64,000 nt of DNA, from the NCBI GenBank assembly GCA_002633005.1, contig NMRA01000047.1, positions 831,326 through 895,325 on the forward strand, read 5' to 3'. The stretch's first letter is position 1; each line of letters opens with the position of its first letter. The DNA comes from Phoronis australis (Eukaryota > Animalia > Phoronida). The position numbers and the translations under genes were made by a program. This document shows positions 6,131-46,955 of this stretch, piece by piece. The notes under the pieces are model-generated. The model saw only the letters and a program-made list of their open reading frames with translations, made no database searches and had not been told where the DNA came from.

Positions 6131-9100
6131 CTAAGTCTTGGCCAATGTTCCCAACACTATTCCGAGAAACAACAACGCACCCAGTCTACTGTTGCTCTTG
6201 AACTTGCTGAAGCAGTCATCCGGATCATCAAGGTCGACTGTGTAGATCTGATGGAAACAGTACGCCATTAAAGGAATACAAACTAACTGAAAATTTACAA
6301 CACTGTCACTTTTGATTGGTTCCGAATAAACTACAGATACACTAGAATGTTAATAGTAGCATAATGCTTTAACCATGCACAAAGTACTGATGACGATGAC
6401 ATCTTATAAACTGACTTCCATTAAAGGCAATATGCTCCGTAGCAAATGTTCTCTGTGATGTGAAATAATCAAGCACAGACACAGTGACCAATCAATGGCG
6501 CAGGATTACAAAATCAAAATGAGAGCTACTAAAAACAGTGCTTTCCCGTGGTCTTTTACAAATGGGTACACACTTTCACTGAAATCAAGTGCAGGTTGGG
6601 ACAAGAGTGGGAATCGAATTGCAGTCACAAATGAGAGATAGAACCATTGCAGAAGCGCATTGCTAATGGTTTTGTTCAGTTATTGCATGCACACTTACTA
6701 ATATTTCCAAGGATCACCTGATAAGCGAGATAAGCCCCAACCAGGCCAACAGAGATGTAATAGGGCAGGCTCTGATTATAGTCAGAGGCTGGTTATACAC
6801 CATCAGACTACTGACACACCTGAGAAAGATGATGCCCAAGCTGGCCCACAGAGGGCAGGCACTCATCACAGTAAGAGGCTGGTTATACACAATAAACTAT
6901 TGACTCACCTGGTGAGCGAGATGAGTTCCCACCAGGCCTACACAGACATAGTATGGCAGGCTCTGTTCACACATATAGCCAGACAGAGCCAGGTTGCACA
7001 CCATCAGACCACTGAAGCCCGTCAGCCAGTACTTCGTCTGGGCACCAAACCGCAGTGCAGTTGACTTAACACCAACTAGGATGTCATCTTCTTTGTCCTG
7101 GAATTCGAAGCATCAGCGTGCCGTCAGTTTCTCATAAAAACAACATTTTTTCAGTAAACGTTACGACATGTACACTAGGTTGGTTTTCAGCTTACTTATA
7201 CAGTTACCCTAATTCTTCATCTATTCCACACACAATATGGCCGAAATGCACCATTATATTTTGTACAATTTGTCACACAATAACAAAAATTAAGAAATTT
7301 TAGTCTACTAGCTTTTTTGTACTGTGGAGATGTAATAAAATAACATCATGTCAAGCTGACATTATTGGCAGTAATTTAGTCAGACTTTGATGAAAAATGG
7401 AAAATGACAATTTTGCCAATTATTTTCGTGCAAAATAAGTGATGATTTACCATAAGACCAGTTATTAACTTGAAGTAATTATAAGTTATTAATTACAAGT
7501 AGGTGCCACATATTTAATTTTGTTTACAAACAGTTGTAACAACAAGAGGAATTTCCTTGCACATAGTTAGCTATCTTCACAAGGCTGAAGTCAGAGACTA
7601 TAAATATTTAAATAGCGCTTTTTGCATTCTTCAATACTAAACACTGATATTACTTTCCCAAGGCTGCCTTTTAAATATCTAAAAAGTCTAACTATCAAGA
7701 CCGATTGAGTTGCAATTGTCTAATGAAGTAAAAAATACCTTTTGCACATTGTAAATATACTCTGGATTTCATCTTATTTTGCTTTCTAAAAATGAAAATT
7801 GAATTTGACCTTTTACTAACACAAATTGGTCTCGTAATATTCCTTAACACGATAGTATTCTGTTTCCATTACCAACCCAAATCAAAGGTGGCGCATGCAT
7901 TTTGGTGACGGAAATAGAATCCCATCAGGGTAAAGAATATCATGAGGCCATTTAATAGGGTACAATGCTCAACAATTCAATTTTTGTTTTTCAGTCAACT
8001 AATGAAAGTGAAATTCAGCGCCGTGCATTCAACTGTAATTCCAAGCATGTGGTAAGTTTAAACTATGTTGCAAGTATCGTATGAAGCAGAAAGAGCAATA
8101 AATGTTACAGGGACAAACAAATCCTTTGTAAAGCACTGAGCCAAATAAGCACAAAGCGAGAGATGAAGCCTGCATGAAACTCAGATTCAAAAGGCTTACA
8201 ACAGGCTGGGAATATTAAACATGAAACAAAGTCTAGCAGCCAAGACACTGTTGTCACAGGAACAGGTATGTAACCAGTCATCAAGTGAATAAATATTCAC
8301 ACCAAGCTAAAATTTTCGTTCGCAAACGTTCGGAAAACAAACCGAGCCAACTGAGCACGTGTCAAATATTTACTCACTTGATGAGCGTATATGGTATCGT
8401 AGATCAGGGTCCACGCTATGCCGGACATGTAGAGGGGGATGACTGCGCCCCACGCGCAGGAGCCCTGAACAGCTGACCAGCCTAACAGAGCTCCCCAGTT
8501 GAAAGTTAGCCCTAAACAAAACAGGCGGAAGCAATGAGATAACGTATAATAGCTGTGGTAGAACAAGCGTCGGAAACAGAGTGTACATTGGCAATGACTA
8601 CAACAACGACGATGTGAGGCAGGCATGACAGGGAAACACCGACCAAGATGAAAGAATGCAAGCCATGTGAGAAGAAGATACAGTCTTGTACTGAAGAGTT
8701 AAGATTATAATGATTTGAAGCAGTTTTTAAAATCTCCTAAAATATGCAGGGCAAAAGTCTGATATAAGAAATTCAAACGTAGGACATGGGGTGTAAAAGG
8801 TTCTCTATAATATTCCAATGTTCGAATTTAGCGCCAGCTGATTTTGCTGGTGTCTCTCGTAGGCTTCAAAACAAGCAACACAAAACTACTTGCAATTACT
8901 TATGTGGGGTTTGAACTTCAAAAAATTTTAAATTCGTAGATTTTGCTTCAAATTTCAAAAGCTAAAAACAAAAACATGCTATTAAGATTGAAAGCTAAGT
9001 TCTGGCAAATTCAATGATTCAATTACTAAAATTGTCAGTTATTCAAACATGACAAACATTTTTCATGCAACAGCCATCAAACCAAGATTTAAGTTCTGAT

Positions 9101-12100
9101 AGCATCATCAGCGGCTCGTAAAAGATGAACTCTTGTTATAGCCTCAAACCAACTTAGCACAAAAGGAACACCAAGTGCAGCTAGGTAGCTCAAATGTGAC
9201 ACAGGTTATATAACAGTAGAATGTTATTAAAGTAGGCTCGTAAATCTGGAATAGGCAAGCATGTACAAGTCAGTAGATACAATCCACTACCATGCCATTC
9301 GTTGTTATAGTCACTACCGGCAACACCGCAGGACATAACAGAGGACCGATGGCCTCTGTCTAACCTGGTGGGCGTAAATGCTGTCATACACGACTGTGTA
9401 GAGGACACAGGCCATGTAGAGTGGCAGTACAGGCCACTGGAGTGCGCCGTGACACGCTGACCACCCCAGCAGGACACCCCAGTTGAGAGTGACACCTGTT
9501 GGTGGGAGATGGAATTAAAGTTGGGTGGAGAGATGAAACAAAAGCTTCAAAAAATATCATATCTTTAAACTTTTTATAATCTTAATTTACGCATGCCTTC
9601 TTCCTGCTAGATAAAAACTATTTTATAACTGTACAGCATGTTATAAACGGATTTCAATGCTCAAGTTTGTATAATTTGGGATAGGACTCCAGATGAATTC
9701 AACTGAGCTTAAATATTGCGTATTTACACAATACAACAGAAACGTCACCTTGTCTTGAATAAGTTAGACGACCCCCTGACGCATAATCTAATGCTTATGC
9801 TTTCTGTAAGGTTCAGAGAACTGCCTTGTGCAACATGTATACTCACCTAATACTACTTGAGGCCAGTAGGTATACCTCTTGGCCAACGGATAAACAAGTA
9901 CTAAACCCATGGAACTGGCACCTAGGAAAACACTGTGAAACAAAGAATAGAAATTATATTGTCATCAATTTACTCCAGTGTTATTCAATAAGGCCTGAAC
10001 ATTTGTTGTGAGTTCTTGAGGTAAAAAAACGCATAACACTTACTGCAAGAAAATACGTCTCGACGTGTCCATTCTCAGATTGAAAATGAAGTCTGAGCAT
10101 GGCAACAACTAACAGTCATGGCCAAAGATTGAAGTCGCTAAATTGTCAATGACAGGCTCATCATAGTAACTGACAGACTTGCGTATTGAAAGCAATATTC
10201 CTGGAGCACTAAACAGTTACTAGCATAAACATTGAGACTTTAAATCTAGCGTACATACCGCCTTTAAAAAACAGGAATGACAGTGTTATCATGGTTAACG
10301 AACATTGTTTGTCACTTAATACGCTGGAGTACAAAATACGTGACACAAAACTTCCATTCTTATAAAATGAAATATATACCGTACAAATTTCATTCAAAGC
10401 AAGATCAAGAAACAAGCTTATTCAACTTTTAATTCTAAAGTTAAGTTTTGCCCTATTGAATCGACACTTCAAACATATTTGCAATACTTAACCGAAGACA
10501 CAAACCAATAGCTGATCTTCATTGCACTCATGGGAAACGCGATTGGCTTATTTTGAATGGAATTTCCAGAGTGCCATTTTTGAATTTCAGGGTTGGGCAT
10601 GCCCAGTAAAATCCATGACTTTCCGACAAATTCTTTTTTTTGCCTGCTGAGGGTTTGTATGTTCTTCTTAGTAACAGAAAACAACTCCTATCATGGCAAG
10701 GAAAACTTTTGAGGGACTGTTCCTGCAACCGCCAGAAAAGCACTAACTTGTTAACCATCGTAATCATCCACGTGCATCTTATTTTGACTAATCAATGTTG
10801 TTGAGTTCTAACAATGTAAGGTTGTGCAAATCTACTGGTTGTCTACTTATAGAACACAATGCTGAGCTGTCGCTTTGATCTCATGTGATTTGTCTATCAT
10901 GTATTCAACATCTCCAATTATAATTTAGGGATTGAGAACAATTGCTGATAACACATTTCACATACATACAATGTCCAAGATTTCGATGATAAATCAGTCT
11001 ATGCTTTTTTAGCATACATACAATGTCTTACATTTCAATAATAAACGAGTCTATCATCATCAAGGAAACAGAAAACCCTTCAGTAATCATTCTCAGTTCT
11101 CAGCTAACTAGGCCAAAAATAACATCTGAAAGAATTTGAAGATGCTTAACCTTGGGATTATCAGTTTGAAGATCACGCACATGTCTTCCTTAACAGCTAA
11201 CTGCTAAGTGGCAAAAAATGCAGCAAAATACGAAGAAATAAGAAAAACACAACTTTTGAAAAGAATATATTTATTGCACTGACAATTTTGGCCAGATTCA
11301 AAAATACGAGGACTTGCTACATGTGAATGGGTGATGCAGTAGCTGTGAAACCCTACCTGTACCATACATGTGAGGGGGTTATGCAGTAGCTGTGAAACCC
11401 TACCTGTACCATACATGTGAGGGGGTTATGCAGTAGCTGTGAAACCCTACCTGTACCATACATGTGAATGGGTGATGCAGTAGCTGTGAAACCCTACCTG
11501 TACCATACATGTGAGTGGGTTATGCGGTAGCTGTGAAACCCTACCTATACCATACATGTGAGAGGGTGATGCAGTAGCTGTGAAACCCTACCTATACCAT
11601 ACATGTGAGTGGGTTATGCGGTAGCTGTGAAACCCTACCTATACCATACATGTGAGAGGGTGATGCAGTAGCTGTGAAACCCTACCTATACCATACATGT
11701 GAGTGGGTGATGCAGTAGCTGTGAAACCCTACCTATACCAGTTGAGCTGGAGCAACAAGCTCAGTGAAACGGACAGTTGGAGGCCTAACAAAGTCATAGC
11801 TTGGAACATGCCAAGCTCACCGCATGCTAGAGGCCGGTCTTTGGTGCGATAGACCTATAACAAGACAGAATAATTACTGATGTTTTTATACTTCCTCCTA
11901 TACTTGCAGAATTGACCTATCACAAGCTCCAACCCCTTGCGAAATGTCGACAAACAAACAATAAGTTTTACCAAGCAACGTGTAGTTTGTCGGGTAAAAT
12001 GGCGGTTTGGAAACGAAGGTGTCAAGAATGCTGCGTTCTGATTAGTCACTTAAGCCGTCACTCAAAGTCCTGGGGACAGATCAATTATGGAATCGTGTAT

Positions 12101-13785
12101 GTCCATTAATACAATACAATACAATGACTTTCTCCATTCTGAACAAACCCCATTTTTTACACACAGAGATAAATTTGTGAAGCAGGAACTTCCTATCGTT
12201 CCAACATGAGGTCCGCTCTACTGAAATTGTTTTGGATATTAGGGAAATTTACCGCTACAATACAGCAACGTTAAAACTGAGCAATATATCACAGTGCTCA
12301 CGATACATATTTTTACCGCTAGAGATTCCAATTCACTAAGCAGAACTCATTGAAAAGGCAGTTTGCATATGTGCATGAATTTAGTGCAAAAAAAGACAGA
12401 TTCTTTATAAAAACTGAAATGCAGGAATAATCATTGAAGATCCAGAAGACCTTTGGCTTGTTCATAACTGGTGTAAAATGAAACAAAACGGTGTTCTGTA
12501 GCAACAAAAAGGAATCTAAATACTAGCAGTCGCATTTAATGGCGTTTTTGCATAAAAAGACCAAAGACCAGTGCTGCATCACTTGGAAGTTGTGTGAAAT
12601 GATTATTCACGTTTGCAACACGTCCAGGTAAATGATAAAAAATCAAAATTCATGTCATTGGTCTCCAAAATTAGTGCATTTCTTTGGCATCAAGCAGACA
12701 TACAAACTCACCATTTTGTCAAACTCCCTGTCGTACATGTCGTTGATAATGCAACCAGCGCCTCTCATGAAGAATGCCCCCGCCCCGAATAAAGCCAGTA
12801 GCTTGAAGTCGGGTAGATGACCAGGCGCTGCAGCCAGCCCTATACTCCAGGTACACGGCCAGAACAGTAACAAGGTACCTGTAAAAAGTCAGCAGCATCC
12901 ATGTGAACAGTCACTGTTCCTCATATTTGCACTAGATTACAATATGAAGTTGGGTCATACAATAATTGTACAATAAAGAGTTTATCACATCAAAAAATAT
13001 CGATTGGTATTCAGAGTATTAAGAATTCAATTTGCTGCACTTTAATGATAAAATGTGAAAAGAATATCAAAAGTTAAAATCAGCATCTGTGAAAAACTAT
13101 ATGATCTTGCGTTTCCAGGCCCACAACCCCAATAGAGGATGCTGCTTTCCACAGGCAAACAAAAATACCCAGCACATGCCTTAGGTAACTAAGTTTTGGT
13201 ATATTCATAAACATGGCAATTACCTGAACAACGATCACAATCTATCACTGAAAAGCAGAATTACTCTCCATCGTCATCACTCACCACAAAGATAACCATT
13301 TTGAACCCTAACAACTGAACATTCAGTTCCAGATTCCAATGCTTACCTATTGGTTTGTCAAATCTAATCAACCTCAGGTAAGGTTGAACAGAAAGAGGCG
13401 AGGCATCTAACACTGCTCTAGGTGACAGACTGAACTGTCTCTGATACAACAAAGCCCTTGATAAACTATTCCGAGAAAGCAGATGGCCACGATTTGTAAC
13501 TAAAGTGGAGAAGTCACTGACTGCTCTTCCACTTGCCGCAACTCCATTGGATAAACAAATTCCATCCAAGTATGTTCTATTGCTAAGGAATGTGGAGTGT
13601 TGATAAGGAGGGTGCTGCACACAGCTGAGTTTATGAGACAGTAGTCGACACTGCACACAATGGTCCTTGTACAACGCCTTTTGCTGAAGTGATGGTAAGG
13701 CAGGTGTCGACGTCAGCACAGATGATGGGACTAGTATTGTTCGTGACACTAGTGTCTTAGCCATTGCAGTACTTAGTAATGCCAT
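6131..13785 (-). CDS. COQ2: 4-hydroxybenzoate polyprenyltransferase, mitochondrial (UbiA family); 7 coding exons with a mutually exclusive exon 5
   Basis: Hand-spliced exons, all GT-AG and phase-consistent: 13785-13347 (ATG, long presequence ...[13 protein letters not shown]), 12878-12712 ([13 protein letters not shown]...[18 protein letters not shown]), 11854-11733 ([12 protein letters not shown]...), 9932-9847 (...[17 protein letters not shown]), either 9495-9365 or 8511-8378 (...YDxIYAHQ), 7097-6909 ([18 protein letters not shown]...), 6247-6131 ([12 protein letters not shown]...TAG). Gives 417 aa (a exon) or 416 aa (e-like exon). Both UbiA Asp-rich motifs are present (NDxxDxxxD; YDxIYAHQDxxDD). 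Confidence 0.97.
6715..6903 (-). pseudogene. Two decayed tandem copies of the 3' half of COQ2 exon 6, including its donor site
   Basis: The ~6715-6815 copy reads ...[20 protein letters not shown]|gtga versus the real [20 protein letters not shown]|gtga, with a 10-nt frameshifting deletion upstream; the ~6816-6903 copy is more degraded and also ends CAG|gt. Confidence 0.8.
7760..8018. repeat. Long imperfect palindrome (fold-back MITE-like) in the COQ2 intron after exon 5a
   Basis: Left arm ...aaaattgaatt...tggtctcgtaatattccttaacacgatagtattctgtttccattaccaa pairs with right arm ttggtgacggaaatagaatcccatcagggtaaagaatatcatgaggcca...aattcaattttt, ~26-nt loop. Confidence 0.7.
8378..8511 (-). CDS. 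COQ2: COQ2 exon 5 'a' type (canonical, ubiquinone-type), 134 nt
   Basis: tttgtttag|GG...CAA|gtgagt; encodes (G)[44 protein letters not shown], with the canonical TFNWG and [12 protein letters not shown] motifs; phase 1 in, phase 0 out. Confidence 0.95.
9365..9495 (-). CDS. COQ2: COQ2 alternative exon 5, 'e'-like (putative rhodoquinone-type), 131 nt
   Basis: ccaccaacag|GT...CAG|gttaga; open frame (G)[43 protein letters not shown]; same phases as 8378-8511; 25 of 44 aligned residues identical; no stop or frameshift. Confidence 0.88.
11320..11740. repeat. 47-bp minisatellite, 9 copies, overlapping the COQ2 exon 3 donor
   Basis: gtgaaaccctacc recurs every 47 nt from 11345 to 11721; the last unit contains the real exon end TGGTATAG|gtaggg. 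Confidence 0.95.
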
Positions 13786-14889
13786 CTGTGATCTAAAAAA
13801 CACAGTTTGCTTTAGTAATTCTACATTCACCATTCATGATTGAATACTGCATGGGTCTGTCTCATGAAGTCATTTAAGATTTAAGTCAGAAATTTGGTCT
13901 TCAGCTTCCACTACACAAAATGCAATAAAGCTTTTATCGTGTAATTGATAACGCTCAAGGAATAATTTACAGAAATTACCTCAGTAACTAGCAGATGTGG
14001 ATATCTTGCCAGACACTTTGTAAGTTTGCCTCACTCAGTTTTAATTATTGTTCAGAAATAGTTAGTGGAGCGTAAGGACAAATTTCAGTCTAAATCACCC
14101 TCATCTCCCCAATGAGATTATATAGAATGGAATAGCAGTGGTAGTAGTAGCAGTAGCAGTAGCTGCAGCAGTAGTTGTAGTATATTTGTTTATAAAAGTG
14201 AGGCGCTTAAATGTAAACAATTTGTACAAGACATGCAGTACTACACCATACAAGTCTAGATTCATCATAACTCAGGGAACTGCATTCTTTAAAGTGGAAC
14301 AGTTAAACTACTAATGGCACATTCATTGATGTAACTTGAAAATCTATGAACTAAGATAAAGTATTATTTATCAGTCATCTTTCAAGAATGGGAATGAAGA
14401 CATTTTCGGCCACTTCGGGATATTTTGCATAGTATAAAAGGAGTTTAGGACCTTGGTAAAAAACAAGATTAAAAATAACAATTGTTCAAACCAGAAATGT
14501 AATGCAGTAAGCAAATTTCAAAAATGTCCGCTAGTCTAAGTCACTCCTTTCGCTAACTTTTTGTCACTTTGATAATTGTTGTCAATAGCCAAGACACCTG
14601 TCAATTTGAAATTGAAGTCCCAGCCTCTTCACATAACAATCTCATTTGAGAAAAGTAATTATTTCTTGAAAAAAGGCAATAAATGAAACACTGACTCAGC
14701 GTTTACATAGTGCAATTTGCTCACAGCATCACAACTTCGTGTTTAAAGAATTGTCAATTTCTTTTTATAAAAATTAACTAAAACCGTTCAAGACATCTTC
14801 AGTAACATAAGCCATCATGACAAAAATATGATCATAAATAGTAACATTGTTGTTTGATTGATTACATTCGCTAGACAGTAGTGGACAAT

Positions 14890-15640: not shown

Positions 15641-16006
15641 AGAAATAATACACGGTGTTGCCTAGATGTATTTTGACAAGTCTTCATACAGCTAGCAGGC
15701 TGGATAGTCAATGATCTACCAAAAACAGCACTATGCAGAAGATTGCTAACCATATGAAATTTATAATTATCAAGTCATCGATGCGATTGTAATTCTAGTA
15801 GGCTTGATACCGAACTCTGGAACATCTTATGTCCAGGGTGCGTGCCCTTCGACAACCTCGCGAACGACCTTCTTCCAAACTTCTTCCTGAAAATCTCTAG
15901 CCACAAGAGAGAACAAGACTTTCGTTTATTCATGGAAGGATTCTCTCAAGAAATTAAGTTTATGAATGACAAGTGACATAATTGAAAAAAATGTTATCTA
16001 CTTGCA

Positions 16007-16157
16007 CCAATATTGGCAGTTATTTGAATTTTGTATATATGTCTGAAAATGTAAACCTTCATTAGCTTTGAGACTATACAATGCATCTGTCTATTGGAGA
16101 TAACGAAACGGTATTTTGGCGCGATGTTTTGGCCCAATCAGCTATTCTCGCGCCAAA
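16007..16157. promoter_or_regulatory. Cell-cycle-type (E2F/CCAAT/CHR) promoter between divergent COQ2 and DTYMK
   Basis: Inverted E2F sites TTTGGCGCGA (16115-16124) and TCGCGCCAAA (16148-16157) flank CCAAT (16134-16138); further CCAAT/ATTGG at 16007-16016 and 16093-16097; CHR-like TTTGAA at 16023-16028; 60-210 nt upstream of the DTYMK ATG. Confidence 0.65.
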
Positions 16158-16219
16158 TTTGTCCCTCCAAAGTATTAACAACTTTTTTTTCGGCAGCGTC
16201 GACTGAGCTGAGAAGAAAA

Positions 16220-19200: not shown

Positions 19201-22200
19201 AGAACGCAGTACAGAAATAGGGAAAGTTATCAGCGACTACCTGGAGAAGAAGAATGACCTTGAAGACCATGCGGTTCATCTTCTCTTCTCAGCCAACAGA
19301 TGGGAGAGCGTGTAAGGGTGTCACAGTAATTCAGTAAATATTTAGAAATTTTCGTTGCGTCGAAATATTTGTGTTTCGCCAATAATTGAATTACAGGGTT
19401 AGCTAAGAGCTTTATCAGAGAAGACAACTTGTACTATTCAATGCCGAAAGCCGAGAGGCCAGATTCCGGACATAATAACAATTTGAACTCGTTTTGAATT
19501 TTAATTAAGCCTTGATGATGGACAGTTTAGAGGTCATTACATCATGTCTTTTGCTAATGCGGTTAAAGGGACATTACCTGTGAGAAATATAATTTTCTGA
19601 GGTCAGCCTCAGCGTGGAGACGAACCAGCCCCCACATGGTTGCAGTCATACGCTCTGCTGGCTCAGCTATACCCACAAAAAACGGATCTTGTTGTTTTAT
19701 AGCTCTGGTCTAAGGCATTAACTTCACGAACTAGTTATCTTCCGTGAAATTTAGGATTAACTAGGTCAGGAATGACATGCTCAACATTGACTCTTTGATC
19801 AGCGCATTTTGCAGTGAATAGAAAACTCACTGAAAGGCACACTTGTCATTGAAGAAGTTTTAAAGATACTTTTAGTGTCTTATTTGCTTCGTTTGTATTC
19901 TACACCATTCATAACACAACATTTGCGAAATAGAAAAACAATTATTTTGATAATTCTTCTGCTCCTAAGTAAATGTAGAATTTCCATTCGCGCTACAGTC
20001 CTCTGCACGTGTCACTGAACTTTTATGATTTACATTCTTCCAGACCAGAAATGAAAAGGCTTCTGAACAGTGGAACAACTTTAGTTGTTGACAGATATGC
20101 TTATTCTGGGGTTGCTTTTACTGCTGCTAAAGAGGTACGTGATTCACATCCTCAGGTTCTACTTTGTAAAGATTCAAACACAACCCTCTAATTGCGGGTT
20201 GTAGTTTTGCATCGTAATCCTACATCGCAGTAATTCACAGTGAGTTGAAGATTATTTACAATTCCAGAGCATAGCACTATTATTATTTTTTCAACAACAG
20301 AATGAAAATAACTATAAATCTTTCAATTAATGAAAACAACGGATTTAAAACGGCTTGACATGTTTTGGTGTCGTTTATTTATAAACATCATCATCAGAAG
20401 AGAGAACATAGTAGCCACCTACCTAGACAGGCCCAACAACAAGTGATGAAACACAAGACACAATCAGTAACAGGAGGTGACGATAAACTAGATCAACAAT
20501 GACAACCTGTGGTATGCCAGTTGCCTATTGAGGTTGGGCTTGCACCAAGTGATATGTAGAGCCTTGTGAATTTTAAGCTCCTTTTGTTGTTTCTGCTTGG
20601 TCTATTAAAGTGTAAATTGCAAGGTCTAAGTATGTTAAATTGTAATAATATTTTCAAGATATTGTTAGTTGGATATATCTTCTTCCAATTATCATNCTGT
20701 ACTCACTGGGATCCATATTGTTTTCTTTGTGTTCCCCAACACCACGTCACAGATGTGTAACGAAGGAAAATGGCGCCGTTTCTATTTTCCGTTACAACAA
20801 TGGCGTTACAACGCCACGGCAACAAATATGTAAATAACTTTTTATAGCGACGTACAATTCAGTTAATATTAAGAATATAGCAATAATAATTATAAACATG
20901 AATTTAGGGCATATTGTTGTTCAGATTGGTTGAGACCTTGCAATTTACACTTTAAAGCAAAGTCATTGAAAGAGCATTGCTCAGGACAATGATTGGAGCT
21001 GTGCAGATGAATATTAACATGTGGACCTTTGTCAGAATTTAGATGTTCCCTGGTCCTGGTTTTCAAATGGCGAACAGTTTCGCCAGATAACTGGAGACAT
21101 ATCCAGCACAGATAAATTCGTACACTACCCTGGACCGTAGACCCATAGGAATTTTGTCCTTAGACTTAAATAAATTCGACAGTTATAGGGACTTGAATGT
21201 TAATACAAAGTTCTCTTAAGTTAACACAGTAATCATTCTCCAATTTGTTGAGTTTTCGTTGAGCAATGTTGGCGTAAAGCCCAACATAGGGTACTTTGAA
21301 GTACTTGTAGTTAATTTTGTCTACAGGATGAATATCATCAAGATTACCTTGCAATCTTGCGTTCAGTACCCTATTGACTAATTCTAGGGGATAGCGATTC
21401 TTTTGCAAATTCGTTGTAAGTTGTTTAATATCAGAATTAAATCTAGCCCATGTGTTGTTAATGCTACATACCCTGTCTATTAAGAGTGTTACTGAGACCT
21501 ACTTTATAAACAAAGGATGTGATGCTATGAAAACAACTGTTTCTGAGGTTAGGGGTCAAGTTCTCAGGAATCGGTTCATGGCCTCTTTTGCAAGGCTTGG
21601 AATTTTCCCCGGAAACGTGGATTTCCGCTTTTTTCAAATGTTCTGTCCGCCCATTTTATTATATTTCTGCGTAAAAAAATCTTATTTGATATAAAATGTC
21701 CGCGGCAAATTCCTTTCCTACCGCGGCATTGCCGACGACGTTCACCTCGAAGAGCGGGAGTTGCTCTTTATGTTTCGGAGGAACATAAATTGTCAACATT
21801 GCCGGGGCATCTGGGATAGCGTGGTGGGATTTTCGATGGCGTCTCGTGTGATTGTAAACCGCGGTGACAAATACTGCGGCTCTGCAGCCAAAAATGTGTG
21901 GGGGTGGGAGTGGACGGGCGAGCTAAAAAGACGCAAACGCGTGCTACTGATGGTGGTAACGTTTTTTTTTTCTTTTTTTAGTTCTGCCGATTTTTGTGGG
22001 CGAAAGGTTCACATCGACTACTTCAAGGCTGGATAGCGCGCATGTTTTGTGCCGTTCTTTGTCATTGGTCATTCCAAGCCCTGCTTTTGATATAGCTATA
22101 ATAGACCCAGCAGTGACTTTCGACCCCCCCTCCATTGCAGTTTGCAGCCGCTTAACCTTGCCCACATATCTTCATTGGAAACCAGTTGACACACTGCTGA

Positions 22201-22966: not shown

Positions 22967-23724
22967 CTTTAGCCCTCTTGGCATTAGTCTTATTGATTCA
23001 AGGTTATGGAGGACACTAGAAAAGTGAAAAGTGTCCAAATTTGGCAAACTTCAAAACATCGTATCGCAGAAATGGATGATCATGTTCGTGTGAAATTTTA
23101 GATACTGTGCTTTGTGCACTGTTCTCCTAAACACTGTTAGAAATTTCACTAAGTAATTTTATAAGGTTTGGTAGAGTACAAATTGATTGTTTCTTATTTT
23201 CACAAGAAAAGTGTTAGTACCTTGACAGTGGAAACTATTGGAGACTGGTTGTGAAAATAAGAAACAATCAATTTGGTGTTAGGAATTGTTTTAAAATGTT
23301 CCACTTTAGAAAACAGTAACAGCGTTTTTGAAATTTCGTCTTGAACATTTGTTTTGCTCTCGATGTACCTTTTTTGCTAAATTTTACTAAAAAAACATGG
23401 TCAAGTGACCCAATTAATAACAGATTGGTAAAAAGTCAAAAATTAAATTCTACATAGTTTCTACTTTCAGAAATATATACTTAAATTGATTTAAAGTCTA
23501 TAGTTTTTTAGATATTTGGCTAAAGACATCACCATGTTAAGGTCTTATGTAACCTTAAATAACAAAGATTCATTGAACTGATGACATGATACCCATATTT
23601 GTATTTGTGCTCATGTAATTTCTGGTCTAACAGGTGCTTTTGTGTATTCATTGTTTTGTGCAGTCAGCAAGCTGACTTTTTGTGACATTTTACGTGCATA
23701 AGCATCTTTTTATCAAATGATTCA

Positions 23725-24290
23725 GGGCTGTTCCAGTAAAATCTGTATGGGAGGGGGGGAAGGCACCTTTTTTCGCACCCACCACCCATATTTTTTATTT
23801 ATTTCTTCAGCCTACCACCCGTAATTTTTTATAGGTTTGAAATGCAACCACTCGTAATTTTTTTTTGTTCTTGTGGTTGACTGCACAGGCGCTTGAGTTT
23901 ATCTGTTCCTCCGTCACTACTAACGTCATTCATTACTAAGAAAACATGTTTCTATATATGGTTATTAGCCATCGAGAAATTCGAGCACCTGTGGTTAAAT
24001 GGTGTTATGGGCATGCGGATAAGGAGATCGGAGGGAGTGAAAAAGTCGGAGCTTTTTGCAAGTTGCATTTTTGTTTCAGTTTTTGATTCTGTGCGGATTG
24101 TTTATAAAATTTACTAAAATTACCCACCATCAAACATTTATGGCCCAATGAAACAACAACGACCTGTAAATTTTTATTTTTTTGAAGTACGACCACCAGC
24201 CATTTTGAATTTAAATCAAATGCAACCACCCATAAATATTTATTTCAGTTTCCTTCCCCCCCTCCCACACAGATTTTGCTGGAACAGCCC
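23725..24290. mobile_element. PIF/Harbinger-like MITE
   Basis: ~38-bp TIR gggctgttccagtaaaatctgtatgggagggggggaagg / ccttccccccctcccacacagattttgctggaacagccc; 3-bp TSD TCA. Confidence 0.85.

Positions 24291-29316: not shown

Positions 29317-46955
<17,639 letters not shown>

Follow-up and report, generated by a model that had tools for sequence, protein, structure and literature searches.

Can one gene let an animal choose between two quinones by swapping a single exon? The question is raised by a COQ2 gene that lies complete on the minus strand of the 64,000-nucleotide (nt) stretch of DNA analysed here (the window), and in which two homologous exons stand in tandem. The original prediction read them as mutually exclusive copies of exon 5 and as a splicing switch of the coq-2a/2e type, with an a exon for ubiquinone and an e exon for rhodoquinone. 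The locus is a real, expressed instance of that published switch. The fuller reading, in which the pair works as the coq-2a/2e system with an exclusive e or a exon, a quinone switch and RNA stems that bias the choice, is given a probability of about 0.78.

The two alternative exons sit between constitutive exons of 86 nt upstream (9847-9932) and 189 nt downstream (6909-7097), both with joints in RNA; like all COQ2 features below, they are on the minus strand. The upstream, e-type exon (9365-9495; 131 nt, 43 amino acids (aa)) has an acceptor ending in caacag and the donor CAG/gttaga, while the downstream, a-type exon (8378-8511; 134 nt, 44 aa) has an acceptor ending in gtttag and the donor CAA/gtgagt. 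Both are intact and run from phase 1 to phase 0. Splicing in script with exactly one of them gives a full COQ2 protein of 416 aa (e) or 417 aa (a). Inclusion of both leads to a stop at 316 aa, 317 nt before the last junction, and omission of both to a stop at 275 aa, 175 nt before it. The encoded peptides are identical at 25 of 44 residues, and for 13 of these 25 the codons differ. Codon positions 1/2/3 hold 15/7/25 nucleotide differences, the pattern that purifying selection on an old duplication would be expected to leave. On all these points the original prediction, which had claimed two intact exons with valid splice sites, a frame broken by both or neither, and an old duplication still under selection, holds. 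Taken singly, the e and a peptides give weak matches to Pfam UbiA, below the Pfam cut-off, and no third copy of the exon was found in the window.

Is each exon used in mRNA, and are they used one at a time? The RNA data are raw reads of three runs with a shared species label (X1, X2 and X3), about 18-19% of each run having been read. All four joints that had been proposed are present. Reads in X1/X2/X3 number 2/2/10 for the joint into e (9847>9495) and 1/3/2 for the joint out of it (9365>7097), compared with 3/4/2 into a (9847>8511) and 4/1/10 out of a (8378>7097). The 44 exclusive-joint reads thus comprise 20 for e and 24 for a (95% interval of the e share 0.30-0.61). Neither the joint that would include both exons (9365>8511) nor the skipping joint (9847>7097) was listed in the three runs, which are of low depth; listing required at least 3 reads in a run, and a joint with 2 or fewer reads per run would go unlisted. 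Depth in X3 is compatible with exclusivity, at about 16 on e and 13-14 over bins of which exon a makes up a part. A further contig run, X4, covers the last two COQ2 exons only. The e and a exons are used one at a time in mRNA, in roughly equal amounts.

The joint counts themselves tell in part against so simple a picture, as they are small and discordant. The upstream side favours e and the downstream side a (pooled 14:9 versus 6:15, p = 0.04), and the discordance is strongest in X3 (10:2 versus 2:10, p = 0.003). Some of this may be due to read-through into the introns that follow the two donors. Sense-strand reads do extend past both alternative donors (9275-9364 and 7385-8377), with drops near 9275 and near 8200 and low depth to about 7400, possibly due to slow splicing or intronic 3' ends. 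The intron at 9933-11732 is likewise partly retained, so read-through is not specific to the alternative donors. A pseudo-exon or an assembly artefact is ruled out by the spliced reads together with the synonymous divergence.

If both exons are real, are they of the a and e types? As described in the available text of Tan et al. 2020 (PMC7434440) for coq-2 exons 6a/6e of nematodes, flatworms, molluscs and annelids, the a exon carries Phe204/Ala243 and the e exon Leu204/Ser243, with Ser invariant. There, e lies upstream of a in all listed species, the lengths are 131/134 nt in Crassostrea, Biomphalaria, Capitella and Ascaris, and deletion of exon 6e abolishes rhodoquinone. The window pair has the same enzyme segment, order, lengths and exclusive joints, with Leu204 in the upstream exon and Phe204 in the downstream one (C. 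elegans numbering). It differs at position 243, which lies 39 residues after 204 and third from the exon end, and which is Ala in both window exons.

The identity of the exons was also assessed against a panel of 52 other peptides (24 e, 28 a), hand-picked from protein matches and parsed by pattern, which contains no flatworm or leech exons. At 8 columns with an e-leaning state, the upstream exon carries that state in 6 (Leu3, Val7, a one-residue gap, Cys30, Val31 and Tyr33); it lacks the e-leaning Ala10 and Ser42. Its mean identity is 64% to e exons and 56% to a exons, while that of the downstream exon is 71% to a exons and 50% to e exons. The nearest named exons to the upstream copy are bivalve and gastropod e exons (70-74%). 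In the exon tree, all 25 e exons, that of the window included, form one clade (99.2/100), which is kept after removal of both published diagnostic columns (Shimodaira-Hasegawa-like approximate likelihood ratio test, SH-aLRT, 98). Order, lengths, Leu204, the exon tree and the RNA joints together support the upstream exon as the e type of the coq-2a/2e switch.

Several observations pull the other way. Panel labels were set by residue 204 itself. Ser243, present in 23 of the 24 other e exons, is absent from the window e exon, which also has Gly at column 10. An approximately unbiased (AU) test permits a clade of the two window exons (p = 0.185, 42 columns). In addition, the available text of Lautens et al. 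2021 (PMC8659336) reports only the double mutant F204L;A243S, in which COQ-2a then rescues cyanide survival, and no single-residue mutant of 204 or 243 was found in the literature. The retained Ala243 means that the two-residue signature failed in this exon, hence the locus is a variant of the published switch. The original prediction, correct in assigning the pair to the coq-2a/2e system, had overlooked this residue; the tree of e and a exons that it had called for gave the single e clade, with the sisterhood of the window exons allowed by the same AU test.

Ala243 and Gly10, both a-type states, invite the explanation that the upstream exon is genuinely orthologous to e exons but has drifted in specificity, the enzyme making mostly ubiquinone precursor or both products, such that splicing tunes rather than switches the quinone pool. 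This would fit with the substrate evidence coming from the double mutant, and with COQ-2e being drawn as a marginal user of 4-hydroxybenzoate in the available part of PMC7434440. However, the e exon is intact, is spliced about as much as a and has six e-leaning states including Leu204. Ala243 also recurs in other e exons: the combination of Leu204 and Ala243 is found in 3 of 26 Leu204 segments among 148 representative matches, one of them from the snail Bradybaena. In annelids the Ala/Ser site varies, and the accessible text of the Alvinella paper (PMC12403961) treats the first residue as diagnostic and finds no clear pattern at the second. Drifted specificity is accordingly considered quite unlikely, and a switch of the coq-2a/2e type is preferred.

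A second question is whether the pair is old or was made anew in this lineage by duplication of the a exon, followed by convergence on e-like residues. The AU result and the retained Ala243 and Gly10 leave room for such an event, and independent origins of mrp-1 exons are cited in the part of PMC7434440 seen here, which leaves single versus multiple origin of the e exon open. Against this stand the six common e states, including the one-residue gap, the single e clade in both trees, and the order and lengths shared with molluscs and Capitella in the same text. A lineage-specific duplication is thus very improbable. A single origin of the e exon is somewhat favoured by the common order, length and gap and by the one e clade, with its brachiopod and nemertean members; most likely the pair was inherited from an old protostome duplication and is not new in this animal.

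How widely is the e exon distributed? Both the brachiopod Lingula anatina (XP_013411841 / XP_013411857; P0122 / P0002) and the nemertean Lineus longissimus (XP_064636309 / XP_064636310; P0157 / P0260) have RefSeq isoforms that differ by a 44-aa a exon versus a 43-aa e exon, the latter with Leu204/Ser243. These pairs come from database annotation only, and both phyla lie beyond the four named by Tan et al. Leu204 and the 44/43-aa lengths are shared with the window pair, whereas Ser243 in both species is replaced by Ala243 in the window e exon. Folding the Lingula e isoform from its sequence alone gave no usable model (predicted local distance difference test score, pLDDT, 37). A literature search on rhodoquinone in brachiopods turned up only the Alvinella paper, and one on nemerteans nothing; subscription papers and bioRxiv supplements may list more phyla. 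Only a-type exons were parsed in four Lytechinus pictus, two Strongylocentrotus, 5 of 6 Apostichopus, two Liolophura and three Octopus proteins, where annotation can miss an e exon. In all sampled echinoderm COQ2 proteins (P0149, P0150, P0171, P0223) residue 243 is Gly, and in the crinoid Anneissia residue 204 is Met; natural variation is thus seen at each of the two substrate-site positions.

A metagenome scan gave 80 loci, of which 76 were parsed, mostly as single-copy Phe204 homologues, with 1 e-type and 0 tandem loci. An e-type exon at L003:272-1813 shares 88% identity with the one in P0202, a protein that groups with Capitella; no a-type exon separates it from the constitutive exon downstream. 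With 271 nt of upstream sequence in L003, the exon order there may be reversed or the a exon lost.

The position of the window gene itself was sought in three COQ2 trees. No close COQ2 was found in the protein collection, the best identities being 67% for the 189-nt exon, to Lingula COQ2, and 70% for the constitutive region. All three trees keep the gene apart from the molluscs sampled, whose clade has support of 82, 84/88 and 94/92, and from the Capitella clade, vertebrates and echinoderms, and give it no supported sister. One tree sets it among spiralians (85/85), beside Owenia and molluscs, and another in a polytomy with Lingula, Lineus, Owenia, echinoderms and molluscs. Seven AU tests rejected none of its placements (p 0.10-0.63), with window plus molluscs as the best fit. 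The gene has 6 of 10 mollusc-leaning and 3 of 9 echinoderm-leaning residues, and lacks four residues nearly fixed in molluscs, among them the Tyr in the NYG motif of exon a (12 of 13 molluscs). Hemichordates, cephalochordates, priapulids and phoronids are not in this panel. None of them is among the 120 matches listed, which speaks weakly against those groups that are annotated and says nothing about phoronids. Overall the gene is very probably spiralian: an early-branching annelid or a mollusc outside the sample is slightly more likely than not, and another spiralian phylum is less likely. The suggestion in the original prediction that the animal could be an invertebrate deuterostome gains no support from these trees and is rated as highly unlikely. 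Annelid or mollusc membership would place the gene within the known range of the switch, and membership of another phylum would extend that range.

What would the switch do? COQ2 gives rise to two mRNAs, each with an e-type or an a-type exon. Following C. elegans genetics, the e isoform would likely prenylate 3-hydroxyanthranilate, starting rhodoquinone synthesis, and the a isoform would likely prenylate 4-hydroxybenzoate for ubiquinone, with the change of substrate serving fumarate-reducing anaerobic respiration. By analogy, the animal likely makes rhodoquinone too. The accessible part of a 2026 preprint has animal rhodoquinone synthesis begun by coq2e, with other routes in sponges and vertebrate tissue. 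Transcripts that include or skip both exons meet a premature stop and would be cleared by nonsense-mediated decay, which is an established mechanism for frameshifted forms according to the available text of PMC6071210.

How, then, might one exon be chosen over the other? Two predicted RNA stems in the cassette offer a candidate answer. The 5' arm of stem A (8363-8384) spans the 5' splice site of exon a, with 7 exonic and 15 intronic nt, and its 3' arm (8278-8299) lies in the following intron. Pairing of 8384-8363 with 8299-8278 is predicted to be an uninterrupted 22 base pairs (bp), with 3 G-U pairs and -26.3 kcal/mol. The local fold has z = -4.4 (1 of 200 shuffles as stable), and opening the a donor would cost 20.4 kcal/mol, compared with 1.6-8.2 for six other COQ2 donors. 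Stem B joins an arm 46 nt past the e donor (9286-9318) to one ending 78 nt before the a acceptor (8590-8632). Its core, 9318-9299 with 8609-8590, is a predicted uninterrupted 20 bp with 3 G-U pairs at -29.8 kcal/mol, or -41.4 with an inner extension, and its pair probabilities are at least 0.95. The e and a exons are 853 nt apart, and stem B would close about 730 nt of this distance. A 20-bp stem occurred in 0 of 100 shuffles of 7098-9846. In the proposed mechanism, stem A would mask the a donor and stem B loop out most of the e-a intron, together likely biasing exon choice.

Across the entire minus strand, and with a span limit of 1 kb, there are six stems of at least 20 bp, 2 of them in the COQ2 cassette. 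These two are seen on the mRNA strand only and depend on G-U pairs, the opposite strand being weaker (A -21.0, B -25.1). The four others are near-perfect inverted repeats of 23-39 bp present on both strands (40332-40738, 23738-24277, 23179-23275 and 20605-20955), probably the ends of small DNA transposons. Transposon ends were rejected as a source of stem B, since its arm sequence occurs only at its two places in the window and its G-U pairs are strand-asymmetric. Competing docking/selector pairs were also rejected, the second-best partners being 12-18 kcal/mol weaker for all four arms. A search of Rfam gave no match in the window. Likewise, a PSMD1 exon had no usable match in the ESM Atlas, and a query of the PDB, with a reference that was probably out of frame, gave nothing.

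A steric role for stem B can be set against distances in the intron. A candidate branch point of exon a, by match to the consensus only, lies at 8534-8538, with its A at 8535, 24 nt from the acceptor. From the e donor to this region the linear distance is 830 nt, of which about 100 nt lie outside stem B. For exclusivity by steric hindrance, a donor-to-branch distance below about 60 nt has been given as the threshold (PMC13762713). The results do not favour such a role: the donor-to-branch graph distance is 44 in the e-a intron and 35-82 in five control introns, which leaves the steric model unsupported, and another COQ2 intron also has a long-range helix (19 confident pairs versus 37). Exon a is well spliced despite stem A, contrary to a simple stem model.

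Exclusivity might equally arise with no part played by RNA structure, splicing factors choosing the exon, nonsense-mediated decay clearing frameshifts and the stems being chance inverted duplications. The early stops in both wrong products, the graph distances that did not set the e-a intron apart and the four other long inverted repeats are all in keeping with this. Conversely, both stems lie beyond all 100 shuffles, one arm sits exactly over the a donor, and the mismatches can form G-U pairs on the mRNA strand, which makes both stems weaker on the other strand. The odds of this alternative are put a little short of even; it concerns the mechanism only, and the quinone switch does not depend on it. 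As modelled, the stems likely bias the choice between e and a, and are to be taken as a lead only.

The remaining exons complete the gene. The first coding exon (13347-13792, ATG near 13785) and the third (11733-11854, 122 nt) are defined by RNA joints and in-script splicing, the former with an inferred N-terminal presequence. The second (12712-12878, 167 nt) matches Pfam UbiA at 1.2e-12, and the coding part of the last exon up to the stop (6131-6247) again has RNA joints and in-script splicing. COQ2 lies head to head with DTYMK, the two starts being near 15900-16200, and PSMD1 is nearby. Two alternative upstream 5' exons (15485 or 15751) join the first coding exon at 13792, so the 'exon 5' numbering covers coding exons only. 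Degraded partial copies of the 3' part of the 189-nt exon lie in the intron that follows it (6720-6905), one with a donor-like end near 6720, and 6502-6852 has zero read cover in the RNA runs. A tandem array of about 45-nt units (11340-11735) starts at the donor of the 122-nt exon and contains repeats of that donor, in an intron partly retained in RNA. Dispersed repeats at 11910-12080 and 7395-7426 attract many reads from both strands.

Compared with known systems, the switch itself is already known, and the additions are the Leu204/Ala243 e exon, the two predicted stems and the Lingula and Lineus e exons. The available text of Tan et al. does not discuss RNA stems, and the present lineage possibly lies outside its four phyla. 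The tandem e and a exons resemble those of the annelid Alvinella pompejana, whose second residue had already been called inconsistent in the accessible part of PMC12403961, whereas the window gene does not join the Capitella clade in trees. Long-range intronic pairing by a two-exon cluster is also known from RNA-structure-assisted exclusive splicing in Dscam exon 17, Mhc, 14-3-3zeta and MRP1, as covered in the part of PMC6071210 consulted. Unlike those docking/selector systems, each window arm has one strong partner, and one predicted stem would mask a splice donor directly.

In summary, a natural Leu204/Ala243 exon separates two signature residues that have been tested only together, and bears on which of them sets substrate choice. 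The COQ-2 enzyme has been proposed as an anthelmintic target. For the choice of exon, which the literature examined leaves unexplained, the stems provide a concrete lead. There is also an outside chance of a broader reading, in which the animal belongs to a phylum without a described switch (phoronid, brachiopod or similar), the switch is an ancestral protostome trait, Leu204 is sufficient and the stems act as cis-elements. If this were true, Leu204 would be enough without Ser243, and the two stems would be the first cis-elements known for the choice between ubiquinone and rhodoquinone. Likewise, an undescribed phylum, together with the Lingula and Lineus e exons and the single e clade, would mean that splice-controlled synthesis of rhodoquinone is ancestral to protostomes and has been lost in many lines.

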